Numbered from the stretch's first letter, positions 26,661 through 59,007 are shown. The stretch: DNA of 64,000 bases from an uncultured Chloroflexia bacterium (GCA_963751345.1 CAVVUS010000038.1:68582-132581); one strand, 5' to 3'. Numbers and translations are program-made. Notes: generated by a model from the sequence alone, not told the origin.

Positions 26661-26942
26661 ATGGCACAGTTGGATCCGGGTACATTGATCACCATCGTGA
26701 CGATTCTGACCGCGGGTGTCGGCATGGTCCTTGGCGCGATCCTGCCCGCCGTGGTCGAGGGGCGGGCCGTGCTCAGGGCCCTGGATGGGATGGTGCGTCA
26801 ACCTGAGGTGGCAAATGATCTCCGAAACACATTGATCGTGTCGATGGCCCTCCTGGAGACCACCGCCATCTATGTGCTGCTGGTGGTCCTCATCCTACTC
26901 TTCGCGAATCCTCTTCTCGACCGCTTCTTTCCGACGGGGTGA
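26661..26942 (+). CDS. atpE: Fo c subunit with Na+-binding signature
   Basis: PAVVEG in helix 1, RQPE loop, ETTAIY in helix 2, LLFANP. Confidence 0.95.
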   Translation: MAQLDPGTLITIVTILTAGVGMVLGAILPAVVEGRAVLRALDGMVRQPEVANDLRNTLIVSMALLETTAIYVLLVVLILLFANPLLDRFFPTG

Positions 26943-26964
26943 GCCTATGCAGAGCAAGGAATAG

Positions 26965-29468: not shown

Positions 29469-29798
29469 CCAGTAAGATGGTGATGGCCGTGGTGGCGCGT
29501 GACCAGGCGGATCGCGTGCTGGACAAGTTGATCTCGGCTGGCTATGGGGCGACCTTCACGGAGAGCCGCGGCGGCATGCTACGACAGGCTCAGAAGATGC
29601 TGTTTATCGCTGTCGACGCCGATAAGGTCGACGATGTCCTGGACATCATCCGCAGGATGTGCCGGACAAGAGTCGAGGTGAGCGAACAGCGAGGGCCTGC
29701 CGAGCATCTTCGGTCCGCTGGCACCTGCAACTTCGACGACCGAGGTCGGCTACGCCGTCGCCTTTGTCTGGGATCTGGACCGGTTTGAGGCATATTGA
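29465..29798 (+). CDS. PII-like cyclic-di-AMP receptor homolog (DarA/PstA/YaaQ, DUF970), frameshift near 29710
   Basis: KMVMAVVARDQADRVLDKL...ATFTESRGGMLR...LFIAVDADKVDDVLDIIRRMCRTR, then in the shifted frame EVGYAVAFVWDLDRFEAY*; same pattern as DarA KLIVAVVQ..TGGFL..EVGGATVFV. Confidence 0.8.
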
Positions 29799-29846
29799 TG
29801 GGTAGGCAGGTCGAGGCTGCTTAGGGGCTCCGACGGGGAGACCGAG

Positions 29847-33212: not shown

Positions 33213-34209
33213 CCTGCACTCGCCTTCGTTACGGGGACCGCGACCATGCGCACCAACTCTGCGACTACATCGTCGGCGGCCGCCTTGTCGGTCCACATGT
33301 CGGGCTCGAGAATGAGCCGGTGGGTGAGCGAAGCGTGTGCGAACAGCTTGACGTCATCGGGTAGGACGAAGTCGCGCCCACTCATAGCCGCCCACGACCT
33401 AGCAAGCTTCAGCAACGCGAGCCCGCCTCGCGGGCTCGCCCCAACCGCCACGTGGCGGTGCCGCCGCGTGGCTCTCGCCAGCTCGACCATGTAGCGCTCG
33501 ACGTCTGTATCCACGTGAACCCGCTCGGCAACCCGTCGCATCGCCAGCACGCCCTGCCGCATCGGTCACCGCGCTGAGCTGGAACTCGTCCTGACGACGT
33601 TCGCGCCGGCGGCGAAGAATCTCCTGTTCCTCGTCTGCTGACGGATAGCCGATCGAGAGCTTCATCATAAAGCGATCGAGCTGTGCCTCGGGCAGTGGAA
33701 ACGTACCTTCGTACTCGATGGGGTTCTGTGTAGCGATCACGATAAAGGGGTCGGGCAGTGGCTGTGTCTCGCCCTCCAGCGTCACCTGGTACTCCTGCAT
33801 TGCCTCCAGGAGCGCGGATTGCGTCTTCGGGCGAAGCCCGGTTGATCTCGTCCGCCAGGATGATGTTGGCGAAGAGCGGCCCACGGCGAAGCTCGAAGTT
33901 GCCTCCCAGCCGGTCGTAGACATAGCCACCGGTGATATCACCCGGCAGTAGGTCGGGCGTGAATTGGATCCGCTTGAAGCTCAGCCCCAGGACCTCGGCA
34001 AAGCTGTTGGCGATCAGCGTCTTGGCGAGGCCCGGGTAGTCCTCCAACAGGACGTGGCCACCCGAGGAGAGACACGCCGCCAGGATCATTCGGAGTACGT
34101 CCGTCTTGCCTACGATCGCACGTTCCACCTCGTCAACGATCTGTTGGGTGATGATGGCGACATCGTTGACCGAGAGTTCGTTGTAGTCCGAGGGTGCATT
34201 ACTGCTCAC
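33209..34209 (-). CDS. moxR: Second MoxR-family AAA+ ATPase, frameshifts near 33830 and 33560
   Basis: [27 protein letters not shown] / [31 protein letters not shown] / GASPRG, FVLPDD. Confidence 0.9.
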
Positions 34210-39029: not shown

Positions 39030-39072
39030 ATTATAGCGTATGCACAGGGTGAAAGCAAGAGTATGCTATAAT
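39030..39072. promoter_or_regulatory. Back-to-back promoters for the protease (-) and the DUF2723 gene (+)
   Basis: Minus: TTGCTT (39058-39053), 17 bp, TATAAT (39035-39030); plus: TGCTATAAT at 39064-39072. Confidence 0.65.
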
Positions 39073-43197: not shown

Positions 43198-43343
43198 TTC
43201 CCTGCTTATCACCACTGGAACCCTGCTCCACCATGACAGTTCGTGCTTGATGGCTGGCTCATCAATCGGCATCGTGTACTCGCGCGTCCTCCGGTAGATC
43301 AGTAGCTGCTGGGTCTGCGCCATTGCTGAAGGGAGGCATCTCT

Positions 43344-45230
43344 ATGTACGGTTACCACGGAAAGATACTTCATATTAACCTTACAAATCGAAAGACCTGG
43401 ACAGAGGAGAAGCCCGAGTCCTGGTACAAGACGTATATCGGTGGTGTATCGATGGCCTCGCGGCTGCTGTGGGAGAACATCGAGCCAGGCTGCGATCCCC
43501 TCTCGCCTGGCAATCCTATCTGTGTGGCCAACGGAATCTTCTCCGGCACGCCGGTGCCGGTCGGAGGGAAGTATGGTCTGGCATCAAAGTCGCCATTGAC
43601 GGGGTGGGTGGGTGATAGCTTGTCAGGAAGCTGGTTCTCAGTGGCCCTGAAGCGCACGGGCTGGGATGGCATCGTGATCCATGGAGCCAGCGACAGCTGG
43701 GTGAACGTGCTGGTGGACGATGGACGTGTGCTGTTCAGGCGCGCGGACAAATACCTCGGAATGGGCACATTCGAGACGGAGGAGGCCATCCGCGACGACC
43801 TCACCGATGACCAGGTCAGGTCGGCAACCATCGGGCCCGCGGGGGAGAACGGCGTGCTCTTTGCTAACGTCACCAACGACGGGCGGCAGGCAGGGCGCAC
43901 CGGGCACGGGGCGGTGTGGGGCAGCAAGAAGCTAAAGGCCCTGTCGGTACGGGGAACGCAAGGCGTGCGGGTTGCCGATCCGGACACGTTGATGAAGCTG
44001 TCGTTTGAGATCATCGAGGCTTCCCAGGGGCCCCATACCGCAAAGTACCGGATCCTGGGTACCTCAACCAACGTCCTCAACATGAACACCCTCGGCCTGC
44101 TTCCAACCCGCAACTACCAGGAAGGCGTCTTTGAGGGCGCCGAGAGCGTGAGCGGTGAGTACCTTGAGGAACACCACAAGGTGAAGAAGATTGCGTGTGC
44201 GCAGTGCCCCATCGCCTGCGAGCAGGTGTCGGCGGCTAAGCCCGGGCTCTTTGCAGGTGCGATGACCGGCATCGAGTACGAATGCCTCTTTGCCAACGGT
44301 CCCAACTGCGGCATCAGCGATATGAACGCTATCATCAAGATGATCGATACCTGCGATCGTGCCGGTATGGATGCGATGAGCAGCGGCGTGACGGTCTCGT
44401 GGACCATGGAGTCGTATGAGCGAGGCGTGCTGAAAAAAGAGGATTTCGTATGCGAGCGATTCCCCGAAGGCTTCGAACCGACCTTCGGGAACGGTGAGGC
44501 GGCCGTGGCTGTGACCGAGATGATCCGCGACCGGGAGGGCATCGGTGCACTGCTGTCGCTGGGCGTGATGCGCGCCAGCGCTCAGATCGACAACGAGCGT
44601 GGTTCGGAATCGTACAAGTGGGCCATGCACGTGAAGGGCCTCGAGAACCCCGGCTATGATGCGCGAGGCCTCAAGACTTTTGCGCTTGGGCTGGCGGTCG
44701 GGACTCGCGGCGGTTGTCACAATCGGACGGCAGCCTACGATCCCGACATCAAGGGGCAGGTCGATCGCTTCTCCGTGGATGAGACACGTGGCGCGTTGGC
44801 CAAGGACACGGAGGAGTACGCAGCCGTGTACGATACGCTGCCGCTATGCAAGTTCATCCGCCGCTGCTTCACCGGGAAGGCCGACCGCGCGGGGGCCTGG
44901 CCAACAATTGCGGCACTGATCAACGCCACGACCGGCTGGGATTTCGAGTATGCGGACGTGGACCTGATCGGCGAGCGCGCCTTCACGATCAAGAAAGCGT
45001 TCAACATCCGGGAGGGCTGGAGGCGAGAGGACGACGTCCTCAACTACCGCTGGCATCATGACCCGATGACCAAAGGGCCATCGGCCGGGCACATTGTGTC
45101 CGAGGAAGACCTCGAATATATGAAGGACCTCTACTACGAGGCCAAGGGCTGGACGCAGGACGGCCTGATACCGAAATCTAAGCTGGTCGCCCTGGGGATG
45201 GCGGACGTGGCCGAAGAGATCGGCGTCTAG
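43344..45230 (+). CDS. Aldehyde:ferredoxin oxidoreductase (AOR/WOR tungstoenzyme family)
   Basis: KSPLTG, IGPAGEN, AGRTG.GAVWGSKKLKA, CAQCPIAC, EYE, D..GMD.MSSG, HVKGLE.PGYD.R, RGGCH, LCKF. Confidence 0.93.
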   Translation: MYGYHGKILHINLTNRKTWTEEKPESWYKTYIGGVSMASRLLWENIEPGCDPLSPGNPICVANGIFSGTPVPVGGKYGLASKSPLTGWVGDSLSGSWFSVALKRTGWDGIVIHGASDSWVNVLVDDGRVLFRRADKYLGMGTFETEEAIRDDLTDDQVRSATIGPAGENGVLFANVTNDGRQAGRTGHGAVWGSKKLKALSVRGTQGVRVADPDTLMKLSFEIIEASQGPHTAKYRILGTSTNVLNMNTLGLLPTRNYQEGVFEGAESVSGEYLEEHHKVKKIACAQCPIACEQVSAAKPGLFAGAMTGIEYECLFANGPNCGISDMNAIIKMIDTCDRAGMDAMSSGVTVSWTMESYERGVLKKEDFVCERFPEGFEPTFGNGEAAVAVTEMIRDREGIGALLSLGVMRASAQIDNERGSESYKWAMHVKGLENPGYDARGLKTFALGLAVGTRGGCHNRTAAYDPDIKGQVDRFSVDETRGALAKDTEEYAAVYDTLPLCKFIRRCFTGKADRAGAWPTIAALINATTGWDFEYADVDLIGERAFTIKKAFNIREGWRREDDVLNYRWHHDPMTKGPSAGHIVSEEDLEYMKDLYYEAKGWTQDGLIPKSKLVALGMADVAEEIGV

Positions 45231-45261
45231 GGTCCAGCAATGAGAGAAGGAGGCAAGAGCT

Positions 45262-45750
45262 ATGGTTAGCTCAACTTCGAGATACAAGTACATCACCTGT
45301 GACCCGGAGAAGTGCATCGGATGCCAGCTCTGTGAATACGTCTGCTCCTACACCAAGACGGGCGAGTACAATACCTATCGCAGCCGCATTCGCACAGTGC
45401 GCGTGGATGAGATCCTGATTACGGCCATTGCCTGCAGGACCTGCGAGAACGCTCCCTGTGTCACGGTCTGTACTCGTGATGCACTGGAGCAGGATGACGT
45501 CACCGGATTGATCAGCATCGACGCGGACCTCTGTGATGGATGCGCTTGGTGTATCGAGGCGTGCGACTTCGGCGCCATCTCCATCAATCCCCTGACGAAG
45601 CTCGCCGAGATCTGCGACCAGTGTGTGGATGAGGAAGAGGGGCCGCAGTGTGTGCTGTGGTGCCCGAAGGACGCCCTGGAGCTGACGACGCCCGACCAGC
45701 GGGCCCAGCGCGCGAGGCGCAGACTGATAACTGACGAAGCATTGCGGTGA
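45262..45750 (+). CDS. 4x[4Fe-4S] ferredoxin-like subunit (AOR partner, DmsB/HydN-like)
   Basis: CIGCQLCEYVC, CRTCENAPCVTVC, CDGCAWCIEAC, CDQC...PQCVLWCP. Confidence 0.9.
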   Translation: MVSSTSRYKYITCDPEKCIGCQLCEYVCSYTKTGEYNTYRSRIRTVRVDEILITAIACRTCENAPCVTVCTRDALEQDDVTGLISIDADLCDGCAWCIEACDFGAISINPLTKLAEICDQCVDEEEGPQCVLWCPKDALELTTPDQRAQRARRRLITDEALR

Positions 45751-45807
45751 TTGTATTGCGCCGCCGACTCGATGCCAGCTCTGTAATAATGCGTGAGGAG
45801 CTTTGTT

Positions 45808-48414
45808 GTGCCAGATAAGCTACCCCCCCCAGCGGACAGCCATGCTGCCGTGAACAGCCGGCCGGATGAAGATCTCAGAATCGGTGTCTACGTATGCCAC
45901 TGCGGCTCGAACATTGCCAGTGTGGTTACGCCCTCGGAGGTTGTCGACTACGCTCACACATTGCCGGGCGTCGTCATCGCCAAGGAGCATCGCTATATGT
46001 GTTCGGACCCTGGACAGGGCCTGATCCAGGGCGATATCGAGGAGTACGGTCTCAATCGGGTGGTGGTCGCCGCCTGCAGCGTCGCGATGCATGAACCGAC
46101 TTTTCGTTCCTGCATCGCGGACGCCGGTCTCAACCCCTTCTTGTTCGAGATGGCCAACATCCGCGAGCACGATTCGTGGGTTCACTCTCACGAGAAAGAG
46201 GCTGCCCTCGGCAAGGCCAAAGAGATTGTCTCTTCTGCAGTGGCCAAGGTAAGCCATGTCCAGCCGCTCGAGATGTTTGACGTGCCGGTGACCCGACGCG
46301 CGATGGTGATCGGCGGCGGGATCGCAGGGATCAGCGCGGCTCTGGATTTGGCAGATATGCAGATCGAGACGTACCTGGTGGAGAAGTCGCCGACCATCGG
46401 TGGCAGGATGGCCCAGTTGGACAAGACATTCCCGACAATGGATTGCTCGATCTGCATCGAGGCGCCGAAGATGGTCGACGTCGGGAAGAACCAGTTTATA
46501 CACCTCCTGACCTACTCAGAGGTCAAGGAAGTGAACGGCTACATCGGCAATTTCAACGTCAAGGTGGAGCGCAGGCCGCGATACGTCCTACTGGACCGCT
46601 GCACCGGCTGTGGCCTGTGTGCCGAGGTGTGCCCGGTCGACGTCCCCAACGATTTCGAGGAGGGATTGGGATCGCGCAAGGCCATCTACGTACCGATGGC
46701 TCAGGCGGTACCCTCTATCTACACCATCGATCGCGATGCTTGCATCGAATGCTACAAGTGTGTAGACGCCTGCGGCTCACTGGAGGCCATCAACTTCGCG
46801 GAGGAACCGGAGATCATCGATCTCGACATCGGAACGATCATTGTCGCCACGGGGTACGATACCTGGGATCCCACGCCTATCGAGGAATATGGCTTCGGGC
46901 TCTACGACAACGTGACGACGATGATGGAGATCGAGCGCCTGCACTGCGCAGGTGGGCCCACGGTTGGGGATTTCATCCGGCCCTCGGATGGAATGCAGCC
47001 GAAGCGGTTGGGGCTCATCCAGTGCGTCGGATCGCGTGACAAGCGCTACAACGAGTACTGCAGCGGCTTCTGCTGCATGTATACGATCAAGAATGCGATG
47101 CTCCTCAAGTGGCTGTATCCCGAGATGGATATCACGATCTTCAGAATCGACATTCGCACGCCGGGCAAGACCTACGAGGAGTTCTACGAGCGGGCGCGGG
47201 GCGCGGGGATTCATTTTGTCCAGGGGCGACCTGCCGAGATCCGCGAGGTGCCTGGCACCGGGAACCTGATTGTGAGAGCGGACAACGCAAGCCTGGGGCG
47301 ACCGGTGGAATACGAGTTCGACATGGTGGGTCTATCGACGGCTGCGATTGCCTCTGATGGCTCCGTGGATCTGGCCCGCGTGTTGACGGTGCCGACGGAC
47401 AGCCACGGCTTCTTCATGGAGTCCCACCCAAAACTCAAGCCGATCGACACGCCAACGGAGGGCATCTTCCTTGCCGGTGCGGCGCAGGGGCCCAAGGATA
47501 TCCCATTGAGCGTCGGTCAGGGAAGCGGTGCTGCGGGTCGCGCTGCGCGCGTGCTCTCACACGACACCTGGGAAATCGACCCCATCGTAGCCTACGTCTA
47601 TCCGGAGCGGTGCATCAACGCACGCGGGGGAAAGTGTACGATCTGCTATGACGCTTGCCCTTACGGCGCGATTGACAACCGTCCCGGCTCCGGAGAGGCC
47701 ACGCGCATCGTTCCGGCAAAGTGTCACGGCTGCGGGACTTGCGTGGCCGAATGCCCACAGAACGCGATTACCCAGCATCACTTTACCGACGGACAGATCT
47801 TGGCGCAGATCCACGCGCTTCTCGCCGATCGGCCCGAGGAGAAGGTGCTGGCATTCACCTGCCGGTGGTGTAGTGGAATGGGAGCGGACAATGCCGGCGT
47901 GAGCCACTTCGAATATCCGGCGAACACGCGCAATATCATGGTGATGTGCGCGGGGCGAGTGGATCGCGACTTCGTGATGGAGGCGTTCCGCCTCGGCGCG
48001 GGAGCCGTCCTGGTCTCCGGATGTCACCCTCAGGACTGCCACTACATCGACGGACGCCAGCATGCAGAGGATCGCATGAGCAAGCTGGCAGTACAGCTTG
48101 ACAAGCTGGGCATTTCCGAAGGGCGCTTCCGGTTGGAGTCAGTTTCGGCGACGGAGGGCGCAAAGTGGTCGCGCATTATGCGTGAGATGAGTGACCGGGT
48201 GCACGAGTTGGGCGTCGGGCAGATAGCCGCCGAGACCGATGCAGCCCGCCCACAGCTCACGCGTTTCCTGCGGCGAATGGGAGAGGTCCCCGGCGTCGCC
48301 GAGGTGCTTCGCCTCAGCGAGGCGGAAAGGTTGCACGGTATCGGCGCCCCCAGTGCGGCGAACCCGGTGACGCATGACATCAAGCAGCCCAGCCCCGTGG
48401 CAGGAGGTGAGTAG
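45808..48414 (+). CDS. hdrA: Heterodisulfide reductase subunit A fused to an MvhD [2Fe-2S] domain
   Basis: GVYVCHCG.NI, ANIREH.SWVH, IGGGIAG, LDKTFPTMDCSIC, QCVGSRD..YCSGFCCMY, GPKDI, ferredoxin inserts; C-terminal FTCRWC, MCAGRV, SGCHPQDCHY. Confidence 0.93.
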   Translation: MPDKLPPPADSHAAVNSRPDEDLRIGVYVCHCGSNIASVVTPSEVVDYAHTLPGVVIAKEHRYMCSDPGQGLIQGDIEEYGLNRVVVAACSVAMHEPTFRSCIADAGLNPFLFEMANIREHDSWVHSHEKEAALGKAKEIVSSAVAKVSHVQPLEMFDVPVTRRAMVIGGGIAGISAALDLADMQIETYLVEKSPTIGGRMAQLDKTFPTMDCSICIEAPKMVDVGKNQFIHLLTYSEVKEVNGYIGNFNVKVERRPRYVLLDRCTGCGLCAEVCPVDVPNDFEEGLGSRKAIYVPMAQAVPSIYTIDRDACIECYKCVDACGSLEAINFAEEPEIIDLDIGTIIVATGYDTWDPTPIEEYGFGLYDNVTTMMEIERLHCAGGPTVGDFIRPSDGMQPKRLGLIQCVGSRDKRYNEYCSGFCCMYTIKNAMLLKWLYPEMDITIFRIDIRTPGKTYEEFYERARGAGIHFVQGRPAEIREVPGTGNLIVRADNASLGRPVEYEFDMVGLSTAAIASDGSVDLARVLTVPTDSHGFFMESHPKLKPIDTPTEGIFLAGAAQGPKDIPLSVGQGSGAAGRAARVLSHDTWEIDPIVAYVYPERCINARGGKCTICYDACPYGAIDNRPGSGEATRIVPAKCHGCGTCVAECPQNAITQHHFTDGQILAQIHALLADRPEEKVLAFTCRWCSGMGADNAGVSHFEYPANTRNIMVMCAGRVDRDFVMEAFRLGAGAVLVSGCHPQDCHYIDGRQHAEDRMSKLAVQLDKLGISEGRFRLESVSATEGAKWSRIMREMSDRVHELGVGQIAAETDAARPQLTRFLRRMGEVPGVAEVLRLSEAERLHGIGAPSAANPVTHDIKQPSPVAGGE

Positions 48415-49208
48415 TGGCAGCCCATAGTCAGGACGTGCTGAACCCCTTCCTAGCCGAGGTGCTTGAGACTCAAGGGGGACGTCTGGTGCAGCAGTGCTAT
48501 CAATGTGGTACCTGCTCCGGCTCCTGTCCCGTTATCGACGATATGGCATATGGCCCGCGACGCATCATGCATATGATCCAGGCAGGGATGGAGGCTGAGG
48601 TTCTCAGCAGCAAAGACATGTGGCGTTGTGTCTCGTGCTACTCCTGCGCAAATCGCTGTCCTCGCGAGATCGAGATCACGGATCTGATGGCCGACCTCCG
48701 GCGTATGTCCGTAGCGAAAGGTTACGCCCACGACAAGGAGGCGGAGTTCGGTGAGGCTTTCGCCCAGACGGTCCAGGTTCACGGGAGGCTCTTCGAGCCG
48801 GAGCTTCTGACGCGGTACTATGCGCGCGTGCTCGACGTGGCGAGCCTCGCCGGGATGGTGCCCCTGGGTCTCAAGATGCTGCTCAAGGGCAAGCTGCCCT
48901 TTGTGCCTGAGCGTGTGGAGGATCCGGGTGAGATCGCGGCTATCGGCGTCGTGGCCTCGACGCAGCCGAAGTTCGCGTCGGGCCTCCGGGGTGGGCGTCC
49001 TTCCTCCCCCGCGCGGCATAGCAGTTACTATGCTTCCGAGGCGGGTGGGGAGAAGTCAGGAGAATCTTGGCGCCTTCTTGGTGGCGTGCTTGGCGGGGCG
49101 CTGGTCACGCTGCTTGCCGGGCTGCTGCTAGGAGCTGGCGGCCGGGTACGCCCTGAGCGAAGCCTCAGGACACGCCCTGAGCGAAGCCGAAGTAGAGGGA
49201 GAACCTGA
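48414..49208 (+). CDS. hdrC: Heterodisulfide reductase subunit C with C-terminal extension
   Basis: CYQCGTCSGSCP, PRRIM, WRCVSCYSCANRCPREI; overlaps hdrA and hdrB. Confidence 0.88.
   Translation: MAAHSQDVLNPFLAEVLETQGGRLVQQCYQCGTCSGSCPVIDDMAYGPRRIMHMIQAGMEAEVLSSKDMWRCVSCYSCANRCPREIEITDLMADLRRMSVAKGYAHDKEAEFGEAFAQTVQVHGRLFEPELLTRYYARVLDVASLAGMVPLGLKMLLKGKLPFVPERVEDPGEIAAIGVVASTQPKFASGLRGGRPSSPARHSSYYASEAGGEKSGESWRLLGGVLGGALVTLLAGLLLGAGGRVRPERSLRTRPERSRSRGRT
49148..49188. repeat. 17-bp direct repeat (24-bp period), REP-like, in the hdrC 3' end
   Basis: ACGCCCTGAGCGAAGCC at 49148 and 49172; CCTGAG-cgaagc-CTCAGG hairpin. Confidence 0.75.
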
Positions 49209-50089
49209 TGACCACCGTGGCACCCTACGCATATTACCCGGGATGCAGTCTGCTCTCCGGAGCAAAGGAATACGATCATTCGATCCGGGTCGTATTCGCA
49301 CATCTGGGCATCGAACTGGTGGATCTGGAAGACTGGTCGTGCTGTGGCGCCGTCCACGCGGACGTGCATAACCCGGATGGGGCGGTTCTCCTGCCGGCGC
49401 GAAACCTTGCGTTGGCAGAATCACAGGGCATGGACCGCATACTGGCGCCGTGCAGCGGCTGCTACCGCAATCTGCGTCGCGCCAGCAAGCGGGTGGCCTC
49501 AGACAAGGCGATGCGGCTTAAGGTCAATGACCACCTGAAGGAAGGCCTGGCACTGACCACGGATGTCGAGGTCATGCACCCGCTCTATGTGCTCCTCAAC
49601 GAATATGGCCTCGATGGGGTGAAGGCCCTGGTGACCCGTCCCCTCGAGGGGCTGCGGGTCGCATCCTACTATGGCTGCATGCTGACGCGGCCAAAGGACC
49701 GGTTTGATAGCCCCGAACGGCCCATCGGCCTGGATCATCTCGTCCACGTGCTGGGCGCTGAGATCGTCGACTATCCGATGAAGGCGAAGTGCTGCGGTGG
49801 GGCGATGGCACTCTCTCACAGTGAGGTGACCGCCCGCCTGACCGGCAACGTCCTGTTGTCGGCGAAGGAATCTCAGGCGGACATCGTGACCCTGGCATGC
49901 CCCATGTGTCATACGGCGCTGGACGCCTACCAATCCAAGGCCGAGCGGGCGCTACACCGCTCCCTGGATCTTCCGGTCGTCTACTTCACACAATTGATGG
50001 GGTTGGCGTTCGGGCTCGATCCCACGTCGCTGGGTTTCGAACGGCATATGGTGTCGCCTCAGCCCCAATTGGCACGCCTAGGCTTCTGA
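49208..50089 (+). CDS. hdrB: Heterodisulfide reductase subunit B
   Basis: YYPGC, DWSCCGA, PCSGCY, YYGC, KCCGG, ACPMC..LD.YQ, LPVVYFTQLMGLA (two CCG domains). Confidence 0.93.
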   Translation: MTTVAPYAYYPGCSLLSGAKEYDHSIRVVFAHLGIELVDLEDWSCCGAVHADVHNPDGAVLLPARNLALAESQGMDRILAPCSGCYRNLRRASKRVASDKAMRLKVNDHLKEGLALTTDVEVMHPLYVLLNEYGLDGVKALVTRPLEGLRVASYYGCMLTRPKDRFDSPERPIGLDHLVHVLGAEIVDYPMKAKCCGGAMALSHSEVTARLTGNVLLSAKESQADIVTLACPMCHTALDAYQSKAERALHRSLDLPVVYFTQLMGLAFGLDPTSLGFERHMVSPQPQLARLGF

Positions 50090-50098
50090 GGAGTTGGG

Positions 50099-51122
50099 AT
50101 GAAACGTGGAACAACGCTGAAACGTCGAACCGAACAGACGTTGACCCTGGAACGCAAGATGGTGACCCATCACGACGTGCTCCAATGGGATCTGGATCGA
50201 TGTGTGGGGTGCCAGCTCGGGCCCAAGGTCTGTCCCAAGGATGCGCTATCACACGTCGGCGGAGCCGTTGTCGAGGGTCGTCTCGCGACCAAGCTTTTGG
50301 TAGACGTCGACACCGAGAAGTGCGTCTTCTGCGGCATGTGCGTGGCGATGTGCCCCGTCAACGCGATCTCGATGACGCTGGACGGCGAGTCACACGTACC
50401 CGTTCAGGCCTATGAGGCCTTCCCGCTCCTGATCGAATCGCAGACGTTCGATCCTGACGCATTCGACTGGAGCCTCAAGGACTTTGTGATCGATAACTGT
50501 CCGACCAAACGTGATCAGCTACGATGAGAGCCTGCATACTCTGGCAGTCGATGATGTGCATTGCATCCACTGTCGCCAGTGCGAGGTCGCGAGTGATGGC
50601 GCGTTTCACGTCGAGCAGGCGTGGGAGGGCACGGTCATGCTCAGGCGAGAGGAATGTGTCGAGGGATGCCTGGCCTGCGCCGATATATGCCCCACGCGGG
50701 CGCTCTACGTCGACGATGCGGGCGAGCTCGTGCTTGCCGACTACTACTGTATCAAGTGCGGGGCATGCGTGCAGGTCTGTCCGGTGGAGCCCGTTCTGGA
50801 GACCTATGAGGTTATGCTTCACTCACAGGGCGTCACGCACGTGAAACAGCTAGAGCGCATCGCCAATACTGAGGAGCTCCCCATATGGGTGGAGCGGTGG
50901 CGTGTGCGGCACACCGACGTGCAGAGCGGCGCGTGGGTTGAGGCGCTGGTCAAACTGGCCGATGACAAGGCGATGATGGTCGAGATTGAGCGCAAGCGTG
51001 CGATCAAGCGGCGCGATCTGATTATCGCGCTCAAGGGTGGGAAGAAGCGCCAGGAGCACGAGGAGCGCGAGGCTGCCCGGCACGACGAGCTTCTGCGGGC
51101 ACTGAAGGGTAGTCCGACCTGA
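50099..51122 (+). CDS. Polyferredoxin (FwdF/MvhB-like), frameshift near 50510
   Basis: CVGCQLGPKVCP, CVFCGMCVAMCP, NCP, CIHCRQC, CVEGCLACADICP, CIKCGACVQVCP. Confidence 0.82.
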
Positions 51123-51176: not shown

Positions 51177-51204
51177 AAGGGGCGGGCTCAGCCCACCCCT
51201 TTTT
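51177..51204 (+). terminator. Intrinsic terminator of the aor-hdr operon
   Basis: AAGGGGCGGGC-TCA-GCCCACCCCTT followed by TTT. Confidence 0.7.
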
Positions 51205-51253: not shown

Positions 51254-51262
51254 TGCTATAAT
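51254..51262 (+). promoter_or_regulatory. Extended -10 promoter of the nuo operon
   Basis: TGCTATAAT, then AGGAGGCGAGGAG RBS and TTG at 51291. Confidence 0.7.
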
Positions 51263-51290
51263 TCCGCCTTGGGATTAGGAGGCGAGGAGC

Positions 51291-51648
51291 TTGATCGATC
51301 CATACGCGCTTGTAGGTATATTTCTGGTCGTCGCCGTCATCTTTGGCGCGGCACCCATCATCCTGGCTTGGCTGGTCAGCCCCAAGAAGCTGAACTCTCG
51401 CAAGATGCAGGTCTATGAGAGCGGTAACCCCACTTTCGGCGAGACCTGGATCGAGTTCAAGCCGCAGTACTATCTGTTCGGGCTGGCGTTTGTTGCGTTT
51501 GATGTTGAGGCCGCGTTCCTGTTTCCCTGGGCTCTGGCATACAATCGAGCTCTCACTCTTTGCCGTCTTCGAGGCAATGGTCTTCCTGGCGCTGCTTGGC
51601 GTAGGCTTGATCTACGTCTGGCGCAAGGGGTGGCTGGAGTGGGTGTAG
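51291..51648 (+). CDS. nuoA: Complex I subunit NuoA, frameshift near 51548
   Basis: K...YESG, YYLFGLAFVAFDVE..FLFPWA, then YVWRKGWLEWV* in the shifted frame. Confidence 0.9.
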
Positions 51649-52780
51649 GAGCGGTTGGCCAGATCCTACTGCGGATTGGCGGCGCCTTCGCGATGGCGCT
51701 CGTCCCCCTGGTTTCGGTGCTCTTCCTCATTTGGGAGGCTCGCAAAGTAATCGCCAGGATGCAGGACCGCCTGGGACCCACGAATGCAGGCACGTATGCA
51801 GGTCCCTACGCGCTCCTTCAGACCTTCGCCGATGGCATCAAGATCCTGACCAAGGAATTGATCATCCCCGAGGGAGCGGACAGAGTCGTCTTCATCGCTG
51901 CGCCGATCGTCGTTGTTGCGGTAGCTATCGCAGTGTGGGCCGTCGTTCCCCTGGGCCCGAGCGGTCTACAGGTCGTGGACCTGAACGTCGGCGCCTTCTA
52001 CGTCGTGGCCATCTCATCGCTGGCCCCTTTCTCGATGATCATGGCCGGATGGAGCTCCCGAAACAAGTACGCCGAGGTCGGCGCGTTCCGGGCGGTGTCG
52101 CAGATCGTCGGATACGAGATTCCCCAGATTCTGGCCCTCTTGATCCCCGTGCTCCTGACCGGATCGCTCTCATTGCAGGACATCGTGCGGGCCCAGACCG
52201 TTCCCTTCGGCCTGGCGGTGCCTCTGGCGGCTCTGATCTACTTCCTCGCGACCGTTGCGGAGGTGGGAGACTGCCCTTCGAGTTGGCCGAGGCCGACTCG
52301 GAGATTGTTGCCGGCTATTTCACCGAGTACAGCGGCATGATGTTTGGCGCGTTCTATCTGGCCGAGTTCATCAACAACTTCACCGCGTCGATCATCTTCA
52401 CCGTGCTGTTCCTTGGCGGTTGGCGGGGGCCTTGGGTGGCGCAAGTCCCACTTCTTGGCCCGGTCTGGCTGTTGCTCAAGTCCTTCGTGGTGTTCAATGT
52501 GCTGATCCTCTTCTGGGCCGCGATGCCGCGGCTCCGGATAGACCAGGTGCTTTCCTTCAACTGGAAGTTCCTGGTGCCCCTGGGTCTGGTCGTGCTGTTG
52601 GCGGTTGCCTTTGTGGACAAGCTGATGGTGGAGGTCGGCATCACGGGGGAGTGGGCGAAATCCGCAGGGCTCCTGGGCACGAATCTGCTGCTCGGAGCCG
52701 TCGTCGTGGGGATTCTGAGTCTCACCGGCCGCCGGATCAAAGAGCGCAAGACTATGCGTGAGCCCGAGGCGGCTCGCTAA
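51639..52780 (+). CDS. nuoH: Complex I subunit NuoH, frameshift near 52270
   Basis: RK..ARMQDRLGP, LQTFADGIK..TKE, NKYA..GAFR...Q..GYE, RLPFELAEADSEIVAGYFTEYSG, PRLRIDQ..WK; GTG start overlaps the nuoA end. Confidence 0.9.
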
Positions 52781-52795
52781 GGTGTAGGGGGCAGC

Positions 52796-53299
52796 GTGTC
52801 TATTTCGTTGAGCGAGATTGTCTTTATCTTCTTTGCTGTGCTCTCCCTTGGCGCCGGCGTGCGCGTTGTGACGAGTCACCGCATATTCCACGCAGCGCTA
52901 TGGTTGATCGGGATGTTCTTCAGTGTAGCTGCTGTCTACATGCTCCTGCAGTCGCCCTTCATGGCCGGCATTCAGTTGTTCATCTACATCGGGGGCGTCG
53001 CCGTGTTGACGGTCATCGCCATTATGGTGACCAAGGGCAACATGCGCCGCGACAAGAAGACATTGGCGAATGGCTGGTCGTCTGCTATCGTGTCCGGCGC
53101 ACTGTTCTTCGTGATGGTCTGGTTTATCGTGCAGTTGCCTCTGCCGGAGGCCCCGACATTCCCCATACTGGATGACGGCATCTCGCTTCTCGGGGCTGCC
53201 CTCGTGGATCCGGGCGGCTATCTGCTTCCGTTCGAGGTGGTGTCTGTTATGCTGCTCGTCGTCCTCATCGGCTCTCTATATCTCGGAAGGGAGCGGTAG
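52796..53299 (+). CDS. nuoJ: Complex I subunit NuoJ
   Basis: HAALWL, QLFIYIGGVAVL, YLLPFEVVS.MLLV.LIG. Confidence 0.9.
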   Translation: MSISLSEIVFIFFAVLSLGAGVRVVTSHRIFHAALWLIGMFFSVAAVYMLLQSPFMAGIQLFIYIGGVAVLTVIAIMVTKGNMRRDKKTLANGWSSAIVSGALFFVMVWFIVQLPLPEAPTFPILDDGISLLGAALVDPGGYLLPFEVVSVMLLVVLIGSLYLGRER

Positions 53300-53303
53300 C
53301 CCT

Positions 53304-53618
53304 ATGGCCGGTGTGCCCCTGTCCTGGTATCTGATTCTGGGTGCGGCGCTCTTCTGCGTGGGCGTCTATGGCATATTGGCCAATCGCAATCTGATCGTCA
53401 TCATGATGTCGATCGAGATGATGTTGAACGCTGTCGTGCTCAATCTTGTGGCGTTCGCCCGATTCATCGAGCCGGCCCGTATCGTGGGCAAGACCTTTGC
53501 GATCATTGTCTATGCCGCTGCCGCTGCAGAGGCTGCTTTGGGGCTTGCCCTCACGATTGCCATCTGGCGTACCGAAAACACGGTCGCTGTTGAAGAGATC
53601 GATCTGCTGCAGGGCTAG
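53304..53618 (+). CDS. nuoK: Complex I subunit NuoK
   Basis: LF.VG.YG...RN....MSIEMMLNA, AAAEAALGLA. Confidence 0.92.
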   Translation: MAGVPLSWYLILGAALFCVGVYGILANRNLIVIMMSIEMMLNAVVLNLVAFARFIEPARIVGKTFAIIVYAAAAAEAALGLALTIAIWRTENTVAVEEIDLLQG

Positions 53619-53664
53619 CTTCCGGATGATGCTGGCCAGACACTGAGTACTTGGACTGAAACCT

Positions 53665-55950
53665 ATGCCTTCTAGCCTGTCGATTTCCTGGTTGATCCCG
53701 GTGGGCCCCTTCCTGGCCTTTGCAGTGATCTCACTGTGGGCGCATCGATATCGCGTCCTGAGCCAGGTCCTTTCCATCGCGGGGATTCTCGCATCCGTGG
53801 TCTTCTCCCAGTTGGCCTTCTGGAGCACCGTTCGCACGCCGGACGTGTTCCACTCGGTGCTGCTGCAGTGGCTCGAACTCGGGACGGAGCACGTGGGGTT
53901 GGGCGTGTATCTGGATCCGACGGCCGCAGTATTGGCGGCGATGGTCAGCTTCGTCTGCCTGATGATCTTTCTTTACAGCATCGGCTACATGCGGGGCGAC
54001 GAGAAGATCAGCCGGTTCTTTGCGTATATCTCGCTCTTTGCCGGGGCGATGCTGGGTGCTGCCATATGTGACAATCTCCTGGCACTCTTCCTCTTCTGGG
54101 AGATCATGGGTACCTGTTCCTACCTGCTCATCGGCTTCTGGTGGGAGAGGAAATCGGCGGTGAAGGCTGCGCTCAAGGCCTTCATTGTCACAAAGATCGG
54201 CGATCTCTTCCTGTTGCTCGGGCTGGTCCTCCTCTACGCGCAGGTGGGCAGCCTGGCCTATGCCGATGTCTTCAACGCGACAACTGTGGCGCGCCTGGCG
54301 CAGACCCCGTACATCGGTCAGCTCACGGTCGCGACGGTGGCCGGACTGCTTCTCTTTGGGGGGACGGTCGGCAAGAGTGCGCAGTTGCCCCTGCACGTGT
54401 GGCTTCCCGACGCGATGGAAGGCCCGACTCCAGTCTCGGCACTCATCCATGCGGCAACGATGGTCTCCGCGGGTATCTATTTGCTGGTCCGCGCTTTTCC
54501 GCTACTGGTCGCGTCACAGGCCTTGCCCGCCGTCGCGCTCGTCGGTACGCTGACGGCGGTGTATGCGTCGGTGGTGGCGATTGCCCAGAACGATATCAAG
54601 CGGGTGCTGGCCTTCTCTACCATCAGCCAGTTGGGGTATATGGTGGCCGCCATCGGCATCGGTGCCTATACGGCCAGCTTTTTTCACCTCATTACCCATG
54701 CCTTCTTCAAGTCATTGCTCTTCCTCGCCGCAGGGTCGGTGATCCACGGGATCGAGCACGGTCATCATCACACGCGCGGCCACGCCGCGCCTGTCAAGAC
54801 CCCCGAGCTCGACTTCAGTCCGAACGACATGCGGCGGATGGGAGGGCTAGCTTTCCGGATGCCGGCGACGGCGCTCACCTTCTTGGCCGGGGGCTTGGCG
54901 CTTTCAGGCTTCCCCTTGATCTCGGCGGGCTTTTGGTCGAAGGATGCCATCCTCGCTCAGGCCTGGGGCCAGAGCGGTTATGTCTTCTGGGGCTTGCTTT
55001 TCGCCGCCGGACTGACTGCCTTCTACACGGCGCGGCAAGTGTGCATGACCTTCCTGGGGAAGCCGCGCTCGCGGGCGGCGGTGTACGCGCGTGAGAGCGC
55101 GCTGGTGATGACGGTACCTCTGGGGTTCCTGGCCATCTTCGCGGTAAGCCTTGGTTGGTTGGGCATACCGAGTGAGTTCCCGGTGCTGGGCAAGTTGCTG
55201 CCGGATGTATTTGGCCCCTTTGTCGAGACCTCGCTTGCCCGCATCGGTGCGGAGTTCGCCGGGTCCGCTCCCGGCGAGCCGTTGGCGTGGCAGCCGATGA
55301 TCCTGGCTGTAAGCTTCGCGCTTGGGGGGCTCTTCTTGGGGTGGTGGGTCTACGGACGGCGGGCCGGGGCCGCCAATGCTTCCGAGGAGGAGTACGTCGA
55401 CCCCCTGCAGCGCGTCATGGAGAGGGTGCGACTGGGATGGTTCTACCGCGCAATGGAGCGCCGTTTCTATATCGACGGTCTCTACGAGAAGGTCTTCTCA
55501 GCGCCTGCTATCTGGCTGGCAGATACCTTACACCTTGTTGACCGAGACGCGATCGATGCACCGATCGTGGCGTTCGGCCAAGGGTTCGGCAAAACCGGGC
55601 GCGTCGCACCCACCGCCGGTCGCCAGGAACGCGGGCTCTTTGATCAGTTCGCCGACGCCATCAGCCTCTTCAGTCGACTGCTATCAAGTATGGCGGTGAC
55701 CCTGGATGAGCGGCTGATTGACGGTCTTGTCAACGCCGTCGGACGCCTCGGTCGCGGCTTCTCGAACCTCTTTGGGCTGCTCGATAGTGACTTTATTGAC
55801 GGTGCCGTACGGGCGATTTCCGATGCAACCGGTGCGCTGGGGCGATGGATGCGCCGGATGCAGAGCGGCCTGCTGCCGGACTACTTGTGGAATGCTTTTA
55901 TGATTATCCTGTTGCTGGTCGCAGCCCTGGTGCTGTTCCAGCGTATCTGA
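53665..55950 (+). CDS. nuoL: Complex I subunit NuoL with elongated lateral helix
   Basis: WEIMG..SYLLIGFW, GKSAQLPLHVWLPDAMEGPTPVSALIHAATMV, STISQLG, HLITHAFFK, GFWSKD; 761 aa. Confidence 0.95.
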   Translation: MPSSLSISWLIPVGPFLAFAVISLWAHRYRVLSQVLSIAGILASVVFSQLAFWSTVRTPDVFHSVLLQWLELGTEHVGLGVYLDPTAAVLAAMVSFVCLMIFLYSIGYMRGDEKISRFFAYISLFAGAMLGAAICDNLLALFLFWEIMGTCSYLLIGFWWERKSAVKAALKAFIVTKIGDLFLLLGLVLLYAQVGSLAYADVFNATTVARLAQTPYIGQLTVATVAGLLLFGGTVGKSAQLPLHVWLPDAMEGPTPVSALIHAATMVSAGIYLLVRAFPLLVASQALPAVALVGTLTAVYASVVAIAQNDIKRVLAFSTISQLGYMVAAIGIGAYTASFFHLITHAFFKSLLFLAAGSVIHGIEHGHHHTRGHAAPVKTPELDFSPNDMRRMGGLAFRMPATALTFLAGGLALSGFPLISAGFWSKDAILAQAWGQSGYVFWGLLFAAGLTAFYTARQVCMTFLGKPRSRAAVYARESALVMTVPLGFLAIFAVSLGWLGIPSEFPVLGKLLPDVFGPFVETSLARIGAEFAGSAPGEPLAWQPMILAVSFALGGLFLGWWVYGRRAGAANASEEEYVDPLQRVMERVRLGWFYRAMERRFYIDGLYEKVFSAPAIWLADTLHLVDRDAIDAPIVAFGQGFGKTGRVAPTAGRQERGLFDQFADAISLFSRLLSSMAVTLDERLIDGLVNAVGRLGRGFSNLFGLLDSDFIDGAVRAISDATGALGRWMRRMQSGLLPDYLWNAFMIILLLVAALVLFQRI

Positions 55951-55969
55951 TCTTGGAGGGCAACCTGTG

Positions 55970-57505
55970 ATGACCTTTCCATTGTTGAGCGTGACCCTGT
56001 TCACGCCACTTCTGGGTGCCTTGGTCGTGCTGCTGATGCCCAAGCAGCACAAGAACGTGATCCGCTGGGTCGGCGTCCTGTTTGGTCTGGTCTCACTGGT
56101 GCAAACCGCCTATGTGTGGTGGGCAGTGGGCGTTGCGGGTCCGGGGCAGATGCAGTTTGTGGAGCAGCGTCCGTGGATTCCCGATTTGGATCTTGTGTAC
56201 ACACTGGGCGTCGATGGCCTGAGTGCGCCGATGCTCTTCCTCTCGGGCCTCCTGACGGTACTCGTCCTGATCTACAGCAGTTTCACGATCGAGACGCGGG
56301 TCAAGGAGTATTTCCTGCTCTTCTTGCTGCTCGAGACGGGTCTGTTGGGCGTCTTCCTGTCGCTGGACATGATCCTGTTCTACGTCTTCTGGGAAATCGG
56401 CCTGGTGCCGATGTTCCTTATCGTCGGTGTATGGGGTGGGGCGCGTCGAGAGTACGCGGCCATCAAGTTCTTCATCTACACTCTGGCCGGCAGCGTCTTC
56501 GGTCTGTTGAGCATGCTGGCCGTCTACCACGATACCGGCACATTCAACATCCTGGACGCGGCGGCGGCCCGGCCCTTTGCCGACAATCCGACTTGGGCCA
56601 CCATCGTCTTCTGGGGCCTGTTTCTGGCTTTCGCGATCAAGATACCCGTCTTCCCGTTCCACACCTGGCTGCCGGATGCCCACACCGAGGCGCCCACGGG
56701 AGGCAGCGTCATGCTGGCCGGCGTCCTGCTGAAGCTCGGCGGGTACGGGATGATGCGAATTGCCCTCCCGCTCTTCCCTGAGCGTTTCAGCTTCTTCTCT
56801 TTGCACGTCCCGATCATCACCGTGATGGCGCTGATGAGCATCGTCTACGGCGCGCTCGTCTGTATGGCGCAGTGGGATTTCAAGCGGCTGGTGGCTTACT
56901 CATCCGTAGCGCACATGGGATACGTTACGCTGGGTCTGGCCGCTGCTGCTGCCGCCTATGGCCTGGGCAGCGGGGACAGCTTGCTCAATTCGGCGGCTGC
57001 AGGAATTGACGGCGCAGCCATGCAGCAGTTCTCGCACGGCATTGTCACAGGCGCGATGTTCTTCCTCGTGGGCATGATCTATGAACGCGCCCACACACGC
57101 GATCTGAAGGCGTTTGGCGGGCTGGCGACGATCATGCCGGTCTACTACGGCCTGATGCTGGTCACAGCTTTCGCCTCCCTTGGCTTGCCCGGGCTGATCG
57201 GCTTCTGGAGCGAACTCTTCGTCTTCCGGGGCGCGATCAAACTAATACCCGTCGCTGCCTTCATCGGCGTGATCGGGATGGTCTTTACCGCCGGCTATAC
57301 GCTGTGGAAGATCATCCAGTACCTTTTCCTGGGCACGCTCGATCGAGAGAAGTGGTCCATGCTCAAGGATCTGAATTGGTGGGAGAAGCTTACGCTCTCG
57401 TCGCTCGTACTCTTAATGGTGGTGCTTGGCGTCTACCCATCGCCGCTAATCAACACCTTTAACGCTGCTGCCGTCACGCTTCTGCGCAGCTTTGTCGTGC
57501 GCTGA
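55970..57505 (+). CDS. nuoM: Complex I subunit NuoM
   Basis: LGVDGLS, FWE..LVPM, AIKIP.FPFHTWLPDAHTEAP, LLKLGGYG, AYSSVAHMG, GLPG..GFWSE. Confidence 0.95.
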   Translation: MTFPLLSVTLFTPLLGALVVLLMPKQHKNVIRWVGVLFGLVSLVQTAYVWWAVGVAGPGQMQFVEQRPWIPDLDLVYTLGVDGLSAPMLFLSGLLTVLVLIYSSFTIETRVKEYFLLFLLLETGLLGVFLSLDMILFYVFWEIGLVPMFLIVGVWGGARREYAAIKFFIYTLAGSVFGLLSMLAVYHDTGTFNILDAAAARPFADNPTWATIVFWGLFLAFAIKIPVFPFHTWLPDAHTEAPTGGSVMLAGVLLKLGGYGMMRIALPLFPERFSFFSLHVPIITVMALMSIVYGALVCMAQWDFKRLVAYSSVAHMGYVTLGLAAAAAAYGLGSGDSLLNSAAAGIDGAAMQQFSHGIVTGAMFFLVGMIYERAHTRDLKAFGGLATIMPVYYGLMLVTAFASLGLPGLIGFWSELFVFRGAIKLIPVAAFIGVIGMVFTAGYTLWKIIQYLFLGTLDREKWSMLKDLNWWEKLTLSSLVLLMVVLGVYPSPLINTFNAAAVTLLRSFVVR

Positions 57506-57519
57506 TCGTGGCATAGGAG

Positions 57520-59007
57520 TTGGCACCTGTGGCTTCGTTCTGGTATCTGCTTCCGGCATTATGTCTTCTCACCGGCGCGGTCGTGATCATGCTGGTGGAC
57601 CTGATTTTGCTGCGTCCGGCACGCATGGTCAAGTCGGTGTGGTGGCTTGCATTGATCACCACGCTGGTCAGCCTCGGCGCCTCCTCGCTTCTGGGGAAGA
57701 ACGACGTCGCTCGCGTGCTTGCGGTGCTCACGTATGATGCCTTCACGGTCTTTGTCTGGCGCCTGCTCTTGGTCGCCTTGGCCCTGATCGTTCTCTTGAG
57801 TGAGTCCTATATCCGCAATCAGGATGATGTGGAACCGGGCCTCTTCTATGCGTGCCTGATGCTTTTTGGGTTCGGGGCTCTACTATTGGCGGCGAGCGAT
57901 AACACGATCATGCTCTCTATTGGCCGTCGACTTCCTGAGTATCGTTGGATACGTGTTGACCGGTTTCCTGCATCACGACAAGCGGTCGACCGAGGGCGCG
58001 ATCAAGTACCTGATCTACGGGGCAGCAGTCTCGGCGGTCATGGCGTTTGGCCTCTCGTGGCTATACGGGCTGTCGGGGACGGCCGACTATGCCTTGACGG
58101 CCAAGGCACTCGCGGGCCAGTGGTCGTGGGCTTCGGACGCGGTGGTGCCGGCCGTGGCGCTTATCCCGGTGCTCATTTTCGTCTTGGCCGGCTTCGCTTT
58201 TAAGATCGGGGCGGCCCCATTTCACCAGTGGTTACCTGATGCGTTCGAGGGGGCTCCGACACCGGTCACTGTGTCCCTGGCGATCATTCCGAAGGTGTCG
58301 GGTTTCGCCGCGCTCGTGCGGCTGACGATGATCATGCTTCCCCCCGATCTACAGGTCGGTCTCTGGTGGCGATGGCCGATGCTCGCGCTCCTGGCTGTTG
58401 CGGCGATGACAATCGGCAACCTGATCGGCCTCTGGCAGTCGAACATCAAGCGGCTTATGGGATATTCGGGAATTGCTCAGGTCGGCTATGCGCTTATCGG
58501 CGTGGCCATTGCGACTGAACGCAGTCTGACTGCCCTGCTCCTCTTCCTGACCGTCTATGCACTGGCCGAGCTGGCAGCGTTCGCCGCGATCACCGTGATG
58601 TCGGAGCGCATCAAGCTCGACACGATTGCCGACTATCGGGGGCTCTATCGTCGTGCCCCGGCGCTTACGATCGTGCTTCTCATTAGCGTGATGTCGCTGT
58701 TTGGCATGCCCGGCACCGGCGGGTTCATGGGGAAGCTCTGGCTCTTCATCTCGGCCTTGGAGGCGCGGCGGATCTGGCTGCTTGTCCTGGCCGCGCTCAA
58801 TAGTGTGGTCTCTGTTGCCTACTACTGGCGGATCATCCAGTCTACGTTCATGCACTCCGACGAGGGATTGCGCCTGTTGCTGTCCCGGCGGCTTCGTGGG
58901 TCGTCCTCGTCGTGGCGACACTGGGTGTTCTCGGACTGGGCCTCTTCCCGAACATCGTGCTGCATTGGGCACAGGCTGCAGTAAGCGGTTTCTTCCTCTC
59001 AGGGTAG
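57520..59007 (+). CDS. nuoN: Complex I subunit NuoN, frameshifts near 57920 and 58875
   Basis: EGAIKYL, FKIGAAPFHQWLPD.FEGAP, PK, IKRLMGYS.IAQ.GY, GMP.T.GF.GK, YYWR; last TM ends GFFLSG*. Confidence 0.9.

Follow-up and report, generated by a model that had tools for sequence, protein, structure and literature searches.

A complex I membrane-arm operon without linked head genes in an uncultured Chloroflexia bacterium

Gene content of the nuo cluster

A stretch of 64,000 nucleotides (nt) from an uncultured Chloroflexia bacterium (GCA_963751345.1, contig CAVVUS010000038.1, 68582-132581) contains an operon for the membrane arm of complex I that is not accompanied by genes for the head. This whole 64-kb stretch is called the window here, and all positions are counted from its first letter. 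Its best protein matches bear the names of Anaerolineae metagenome-assembled genomes, which assigns it to this class of the Chloroflexota. Gene calls were made on it by Pfam and NCBIfam scans. The genes nuoA, nuoH, nuoJ, nuoK, nuoL, nuoM and nuoN lie contiguously on the plus strand, from 51291 to 58984, and every subunit of the complex I membrane domain (A, H, J, K, L, M and N) is recognised by family models:

51291-51648, plus strand: nuoA, TTG start; Pfam Oxidored_q4 split over two frames, positions 4-69 and, in the +1 frame, 71-99; also found by tblastn
51639-52780, plus strand: nuoH, GTG start; Pfam NADHdh positions 6-193 and 190-297 in two frames
52796-53299, plus strand: nuoJ; Pfam Oxidored_q3 (101 bits) and NCBIfam NuoJ models
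53304-53618, plus strand: nuoK, ATG at 53304; Pfam Oxidored_q2 and NCBIfam NuoK
53665-55950, plus strand: nuoL, 761 residues; NCBIfam NuoL models NF005141 (585 > 556) and TIGR01974 (571 > 407)
55967-57505, plus strand: nuoM, the sole copy; TIGR01972 (545.8 > 263.8)
57520-58984, plus strand: nuoN; NCBIfam NuoN positions 3-131 in a first frame and 129-436 in a second

The original prediction, made from the sequence alone, had named these seven subunits in this order and described tight junctions between them, and both descriptions stand. The GTG of nuoH at 51639 lies inside the final 10 nt of nuoA, whose stop codon occupies 51646-51648, and nuoJ starts 15 nt past the nuoH stop. The end given for the operon, 59007, overshoots the nuoN stop by 23 nt and is corrected here to 58984. 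We also found one frameshift each in nuoA (near 51545-51550), nuoH (at 52265-52268, inside a G run, GTGGGAGAC, at 52263-52271) and nuoN (near 57915-57917), none of which the original prediction had noted.

For the head genes, Pfam-checked sequences from three loci of a background set served as NuoB, C, D, E, F, G and I queries and were compared with the window by six-frame tblastn (E ≤ 1e-4). The background set consists of 80 nuo loci, mostly from other phyla, obtained by a search of genome contigs with a NuoL alignment. NuoB, C, D, E, F and G had no match in the window, which bears out the absence of these genes that had been predicted. NuoI-like matches were limited to weak ones on ferredoxin domains, at 46600-46773 in an HdrA gene and at 50195-50395 in a polyferredoxin gene. 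No adjacent hydrogenase subunit genes resembling NuoB and NuoD were found in the window by tblastn, nor any hydrogenase or Mrp small-subunit genes in the window by Pfam and NCBIfam scans and tblastn. The observation of a membrane-arm-only operon in this window is therefore confirmed.

The polyferredoxin gene ends 168 nt before the nuoA start. The gap between the two contains three features that bear on how nuo might be transcribed, one of which recurs elsewhere in the window:

51179-51204, plus strand: terminator-like hairpin downstream of the polyferredoxin gene, a GC stem at 51179-51199 followed by TTTTT
51254-51262, plus strand: extended -10 promoter-like site, TGCTATAAT, 28 nt ahead of the start of nuoA; putative function
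51277-51282, plus strand: AGGAGG, 8 nt before the nuoA TTG start
7672-7680 (plus), 14621-14629 (minus), 22473-22481 (minus), 39064-39072 (plus) and 51254-51262 (plus): exact copies of the 9-mer TGCTATAAT, as sequence matches

A scan for consensus promoters and terminators returned nothing in this gap, and the hairpin and the extended -10 site were found by reading the sequence. The scan did not list the hairpin because its stem has one mismatch. Its predicted fold has an energy of -21.5 kcal/mol (z -2.83), and 1 of 200 shuffled sequences folds as well. The motif TGNTATAAT has five copies in the window against 0.27 expected, a number that none of 100 shuffles reaches, and three of the five copies (7672, 22481 and 51254) lie 28-86 nt upstream of the start of an open reading frame (ORF) on the same strand. 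TGCTATAAT probably serves this organism as an extended -10 promoter element. Because a hairpin and a promoter-like site both precede nuoA, we read nuo as its own transcription unit, which probably has its own promoter and is not merely the tail of the upstream operon.

NuoH, the NuoL tail and the upstream polyferredoxin

The family scores and the conserved residues both assign the cluster to complex I. NuoL (585 bits against a cut-off of 556) and NuoM (546 against 264) exceed the curated NCBIfam complex I cut-offs, and P0122, an intact NuoH orthologue of 380 residues found elsewhere and 94% identical to the window NuoH, passes the NuoH equivalog model NF004741 (315.6 > 305). When a profile of the clade to which the window NuoH belongs was compared with solved chains, NuoH and NdhA scored about 240 bits, compared with 88 for MbhM, 72 for 6u8y_M and 62 for formate hydrogenlyase subunit 4. 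Next, we counted columns that are at least 90% conserved among loci also carrying B, D and I. The window keeps 117 of 125 such columns in NuoL, 61 of 62 in NuoM, 36 of 43 in NuoN and 11 of 15 in NuoK. The conserved Lys, Glu and His residues of NuoL, M and N and both conserved Glu residues of NuoK are retained; all conserved charged columns of these four subunits are kept except for one conservative Glu-to-Asp change in NuoN. NuoA retains 23 of 26 columns conserved in canonical NuoA. Judged by their sequences, the subunits belong to complex I proper and not to the Mrp or hydrogenase families, and together they are predicted to form a functional arm that pumps protons as complex I does.

NuoH is the most unusual of the seven. 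We defined its conserved columns as those at least 90% conserved in 39 canonical NuoH sequences and numbered them by alignment to Thermus thermophilus Nqo8 (4he8_H). The window NuoH keeps 54 of 63 columns, fewer than any of the 39 canonical sequences (minimum 56, median 62). Its differences are common to a large clade (P0122-P0240) with 52-100% identity among the 120 matches listed, and those of the listed matches that carry a name are Anaerolineae, Anaerolineales or Chloroflexi. At the position of Nqo8 Glu35, in the ERK motif, members of this clade have Ala, Ser, Thr, Val or Tyr, and at that of Arg294 they have an invariant Trp (W293, alignment A3). The loop between transmembrane helices (TMH) 1 and 2 has a 4-residue insert after GP(N), SNNKY has become SRNKY, and an extra C-terminal helix is followed by a basic tail. 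The acidic motif of the TMH5-6 loop and the RxRxDQ motif are retained. We take the altered positions (Glu35, Arg294 and the loop region) to line the quinone chamber and the interface with the quinone (Q-) module. A NuoH clade without two otherwise conserved charged residues looks new at the sequence level. At least two kinds of NuoH occur in Anaerolineae, the canonical-like one of background locus L001 and that of the divergent window clade.

The second unusual feature is the C-terminal lateral-helix tail of NuoL, which we measured from a conserved D..Y motif to the C-terminus. It has 158 residues in the window compared with 72-81 in most of the 80 background loci, an extension of about 80 residues beyond the usual length. 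Eleven background loci with two nuoM genes have tails of 101-107 residues, and in the 120 Anaerolineae homologues listed (P0002-P0120) the tail mostly has 126-196. The added length is built from repeats of about 26-29 residues that resemble (F/L)D..(I/V)DG.V and span NuoL residues ~600-761. Canonical tails contain one repeat, tails of about 100 residues two, the window NuoL four and P0026 five. An AlphaFold2 model of NuoL (predicted local distance difference test, pLDDT, 74) places helices at 600-639 and 656-732, followed by a terminal transmembrane helix at 737-760; in the tail region the pLDDT is just 36-69. In this model, a C-terminal membrane anchor follows the lateral helix.

We considered whether tail length might count the pump subunits of the complex and rejected this idea, as L008, L021, L027 and L035 combine tails of some 100 residues with just one nuoM. 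No extra pump gene lies near the window nuoL. Lateral-helix inserts also occur in clusters of canonical gene content, and the published insert has 26 residues (PMC9040806; this paper and those cited below were available to us as partial texts, to which our statements are limited). In the literature available in this form, we found no published description of a long, repeat-built NuoL tail in Chloroflexi. A tail about 80 residues over the usual length looks new, as far as sequence comparison goes.

Directly upstream of nuo lies a gene set that the original prediction had left unmentioned where it meets nuoA, at the polyferredoxin. Its genes are tightly packed on the same strand, from 43323 to 51122:

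43323-45230, plus strand: AOR (Pfam, NCBIfam)
45262-45750, plus strand: four-cluster ferredoxin (Pfam, NCBIfam)
45793-48414, plus strand: HdrA2-type fusion of HdrA and MvhD (HdrA2 model 1025.7 bits against a cut-off of 1100)
48414-49208, plus strand: HdrC-like protein (Pfam, NCBIfam)
49208-50089, plus strand: HdrB-like protein (Pfam, NCBIfam)
50099-51122, plus strand: FwdF/FmdF-like polyferredoxin of ~340 residues; P0241 (340 residues, 93% identical) aligns with 50099-50509 and 50508-51119

The alignment with P0241 joins two ferredoxin ORFs, 50099-50527 and 50511-51122, into a single gene with a 1-nt shift at 50508. The polyferredoxin family has a mean column identity of 74%. Among solved structures, its profile best matches FmdF (7bkb_K, 1e-37), FwdF (5t5i_F) and 9sfi_T, an entry that also holds HdrA, whereas NuoI/TYKY chains, aligned over residues 33-98, get no further than about 1e-11. 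The first domain is NuoI-like, with 71 bits to TIGR01971 (cut-off 113) and 36-40% identity to NuoI genes. The AlphaFold2 model of the protein has a pLDDT of 57. The AOR-Hdr-polyferredoxin set may encode an electron-bifurcating complex of a W-enzyme and Hdr; it presumably resembles known clusters of this kind, such as that of class II benzoyl-CoA reductase. As a separate observation, the HdrB-like protein matches HdrB and the SdhE anchor of methylmenaquinol:fumarate reductase with equal scores.

To follow the polyferredoxin across the clade, we took its first 40 matches, of which 25 lie on contigs of at least 4 kb, and compared the sizes of these contigs, each the longest recorded for its match, with those bearing NuoH or NuoL. 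Twelve of the 25 have the same size to the base as a NuoH or NuoL contig, including contigs of 4334 and 6066 bp, and about 0.2 such agreements would arise by chance. Because exact matches in size are so far over chance, we conclude that the polyferredoxin gene neighbours nuo throughout the clade. In the 80 background loci, nuo is never accompanied by Hdr, AOR or this polyferredoxin, so the pairing of polyferredoxin and nuo appears specific to the window clade. A conserved FmdF-like polyferredoxin that closes an AOR-Hdr cluster and adjoins nuo looks new.

Readings of the headless layout

To place the layout in context, we examined the background loci in which nuoA, nuoH and nuoL are all visible. 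In 35 of these 42, B, C, D and I are all in line; the other 7 are without at least one of them. Layouts with missing genes are as follows:

L007 and L018: no B
L035 (NC10): A-C-D-H-J-K-L-M-N plus a second set, A-C-D-E-F-G
L039: A-C-H-I-J-K
L047 (a Chloroflexi metagenome-assembled genome, MAG): A-C-H-J-K
L031 (Armatimonadota), 5629-15427: A-E-F-H-J-K-L-M-N; N-module genes without Q-module genes
L075, 2172-9313: A-H-J-K-L-M-N as in the window, flanked by rapZ and a V-type ATPase operon

Some Q- or N-module genes are retained in several of these loci, so the partners missing there must lie elsewhere. Scattering of nuo genes is common and is the ordinary explanation for missing ones. A NuoH tree, built by a quick method with support from the Shimodaira-Hasegawa-like approximate likelihood ratio test (SH-aLRT), makes the window clade (98) sister to L001, an Anaerolineaceae locus with adjacent H and J and no nuoI, with L047 next out. 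All three fall within a wider group that also holds L075, L035 and 11-subunit-type loci, among them those of Ignavibacteriota and Zixiibacteriota. This group stands apart from the Acidobacteriota and Verrucomicrobiota loci with two nuoM genes and the order A-B-C-D-I-H-J-K-L-M-M-N.

The literature holds similar cases. In Chloroflexi, nuoBCDI, with nuoC and nuoD fused, is described as lying apart from the operon (PMC7117926, citing Chadwick 2018), and in the Chloroflexi MAG of the PMC7117926 authors it is on a separate contig. Streptomyces sp. SM17/SM18, Salinispora and Kocuria carry partial nuoAHJKLMN operons as an additional copy (PMC6676996), and partial nuo operons are treated as common (PMC4453560, PMC3144371). 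The headless layout itself is not new, as operons of nuoAHJKLMN only have already been published.

We give a probability of roughly 0.6 to the reading that the window cluster encodes the membrane arm of a split complex I whose nuoB, nuoC/D and nuoI genes lie elsewhere in the genome. The organism would then make an 11-subunit-type complex I, as is found in Chloroflexota, with the genes for the quinone module at another locus. The seven products would assemble in the membrane, and a Q-module made in trans would dock onto NuoH and NuoA, with protons pumped through NuoL, M and N and through the NuoH/J/K channel. Because no NuoEFG is linked, ferredoxin would be a plausible electron donor. This reading fits the family membership of the subunits, their kept residues, the promoter-like site, the frequency with which nuo genes are scattered and the published Chloroflexi layout. 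The original prediction had proposed an exchangeable arm sharing BCDI encoded elsewhere; with 7 of 42 background loci incomplete and the Chloroflexi layout described in PMC7117926, an arm using distant BCDI becomes the best-supported reading, while its exchangeability is less well placed.

Several points weigh against a split complex I. In a search that covered the 64-kb window, nuoB, nuoCD and nuoI were not seen for this organism. Immediately before nuo lies a conserved polyferredoxin gene. NuoH deviates from canonical sequences in the number of conserved columns kept (54 of 63), at the Glu35 and Arg294 equivalents and in the 4-residue loop insert. Finally, the '2M' layout published for Chloroflexi has two nuoM genes, the second of them between nuoL and nuoN, and the window only one, at 55967-57505.

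A first alternative is that the operon encodes a spare or exchangeable arm, an extra nuoAHJKLMN set beside a complete operon that shares or competes for a single Q-module, a role already proposed for the partial operon of marine actinomycetes. The actinomycete operons of PMC6676996, described as 'one extra copy', have the same content. The occurrence of at least two kinds of NuoH in Anaerolineae and the greater divergence of the window NuoH compared with any canonical one are also consistent with a second set. However, the clade is large and strongly conserved (52-100% identity among the 120 listed), which fits a main enzyme equally well. We regard a spare arm as unlikely, though the least so of the alternatives.

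A second alternative, which we place behind the spare arm, dispenses with a canonical Q-module altogether. In this case, AOR-HdrA2(MvhD)-HdrCB would drive the arm via the polyferredoxin, as a ferredoxin- or Hdr-coupled ion pump with a new head. The conserved linkage of polyferredoxin and nuo (12 of 25 against ~0.2 expected), seen with these neighbours in 0 of 80 background loci, points in this direction. So do the NuoI-like first domain of the polyferredoxin and its best solved matches, FmdF/FwdF and an entry (9sfi_T) that also holds HdrA. The loss of two conserved charged residues from NuoH, its loop insert and the unusually long NuoL tail speak for it as well. Against this, the polyferredoxin and nuo sets are kept apart by a promoter-like site and a hairpin that ends in a T-run, the genes here offer no candidate for cluster N2 or a quinone pocket, and L075 is headless without any such neighbour. 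Furthermore, every solved chain that the NuoH profile matches belongs to complex I, NDH-1, Mbh, Mbs or formate hydrogenlyase, and every solved NuoH homologue we know of sits under a NuoB/NuoD-like pair. A new head is thus doubtful.

Lower again we place the proposal that this Anaerolineae clade has rebuilt its membrane arm, through the NuoH changes and the four NuoL repeats, and coupled it via the polyferredoxin to the AOR-HdrA2(MvhD)-HdrCB module instead of a canonical Q-module. Improbable as it seems to us, such a rebuilt arm would amount to an Hdr- or ferredoxin-driven ion pump of an undescribed kind.

The frameshifts raise the possibility that the operon is a decaying relic, pseudogenised in nuoA, nuoH and nuoN after the loss of its head genes. 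Three of the seven nuo genes are indeed out of frame. However, each has a single break, after which the shifted frame is open to a natural stop (171 codons in nuoH, 356 in nuoN), and the nuoH break sits in a G run. The subunits retain their conserved residues, and P0122 is intact at 94% identity. In addition, eight genes in the 64 kb are split between frames by a single shift each, as judged from cut Pfam domains, and at least five of these are unrelated genes broken in the same manner as nuoA, nuoH and nuoN:

4298-6407, minus strand: ADP-forming acetyl-CoA synthetase, Succ_CoA_lig domain cut at position 77/78
near 18782-19273, minus strand: ABC ATPase, split across frames
27743-29465, plus strand: ATP synthase alpha, split across frames
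33209-34209, minus strand: MoxR, split across frames
50099-51122, plus strand: the polyferredoxin gene, 1-nt indel near 50508

Because unrelated genes are broken alike and P0122 is intact, we consider it very probable that the nuo breaks are assembly indels rather than real mutations; they look like the leftover indel errors of a long-read assembly. One of the eight breaks lies within a G run and one beside AAA. The single breaks, open second frames, kept residues and intact P0122 lead us to reject the pseudogene reading as highly improbable. Annotation of this contig will over-call pseudogenes, given the indel pattern.

Least probable of all is an Mrp-like cation/proton antiporter made from complex I parts without redox input, a transport role that the original prediction had entertained: NuoL, M and N share ancestry with MrpA and MrpD and match them more weakly in NCBIfam, but with NuoH, NuoA, NuoJ and NuoK present, NuoL and NuoM above the complex I cut-offs and far below those for Mrp (279.6 against 1104 for MrpA), and no match to any MrpB, C, E, F or G model in general family scans, it finds no support and we reject it. 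To our knowledge, Mrp has no NuoH.

A split complex I thus remains our preferred reading. If it is true, nuo genes missing from an operon or from the annotation of a MAG do not amount to a missing module, which matters for metabolic reconstructions of Chloroflexota. The NuoH variant bears on how the quinone chamber talks to the pumps. A NuoL tail that grows by repeats of ~26-29 residues without nearby extra pump genes bears on the role of the lateral helix, and the adjacent Hdr-type polyferredoxin bears on electron input to a complex I that lacks NuoEFG.

Other features and comparison with known systems

Further features of the window lie apart from the nuo cluster. On the plus strand, an ATP synthase cluster at 23720-30812 reads beta, a gap, a, c, b with an OSCP-like end, alpha, a PII-like gene and gamma, an order that we take to resemble N-type ATPase operons. 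The PII-like gene, at 29444-29788, encodes a cyclic-di-AMP receptor domain and is an odd insertion between alpha and gamma. Two separate sets of a MoxR AAA ATPase and a DUF58 protein occur at 7766-12563 (plus strand) and 31934-34209 (minus strand); a transglutaminase-like protein follows the first, and the second lies near a DUF4129 gene.

Among known systems, Mrp, Mbh and Mbs have antiporter-like subunits in common with the window, and Mbh and Mbs also have a NuoH-like subunit. The window NuoH differs from theirs, scoring about 240 bits to complex I compared with 88 to MbhM and 72 to 6u8y_M. More generally, group 4 hydrogenases, Mbh, Mbs and formate hydrogenlyase are set apart from the window by a NuoH that is not of the MbhM/HycD type and by the lack of NuoB/NuoD-like genes in the window.

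The polyferredoxin is most like FmdF and FwdF. It aligns with FmdF from the N-terminus (1e-37) and is encoded beside HdrA, B and C. Unlike the methanogen setting, however, there is no Fmd or Fwd here: an AOR-family enzyme heads the cluster and a nuo arm follows it. The protein itself also differs, in that its first Cys motif is without the third Cys and a conserved C-terminal helix (277-335) has been added.

The 11-subunit complex I (Moparthi and Hagerhall 2011, PMC3144371) resembles the window in having no linked N-module, and the NuoH tree groups the two. Operons for this enzyme keep B, C, D and I in line, whereas the window has none of the four. In gene content and order, the partial operon of marine actinomycetes (PMC6676996) is identical to that of the window, A-H-J-K-L-M-N without B-G or I. 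It belongs to another phylum, though, where it supplements a full nuo operon and has been read as a marine adaptation.

The window also shares much with the Chloroflexi '2M' complex I (Chadwick et al. 2018, via PMC7117926, PMC9040806 and PMC6606698). As described in the parts of these papers available to us, both have a membrane-subunit operon without nuoB, C, D and I, a lengthened NuoL lateral helix and no linked nuoEFG, and both occur in the same phylum. The window differs in several respects: it has one nuoM, its NuoL tail exceeds the usual length by about 80 residues, compared with about 26 in the published form, and its NuoH carries its own substitutions.

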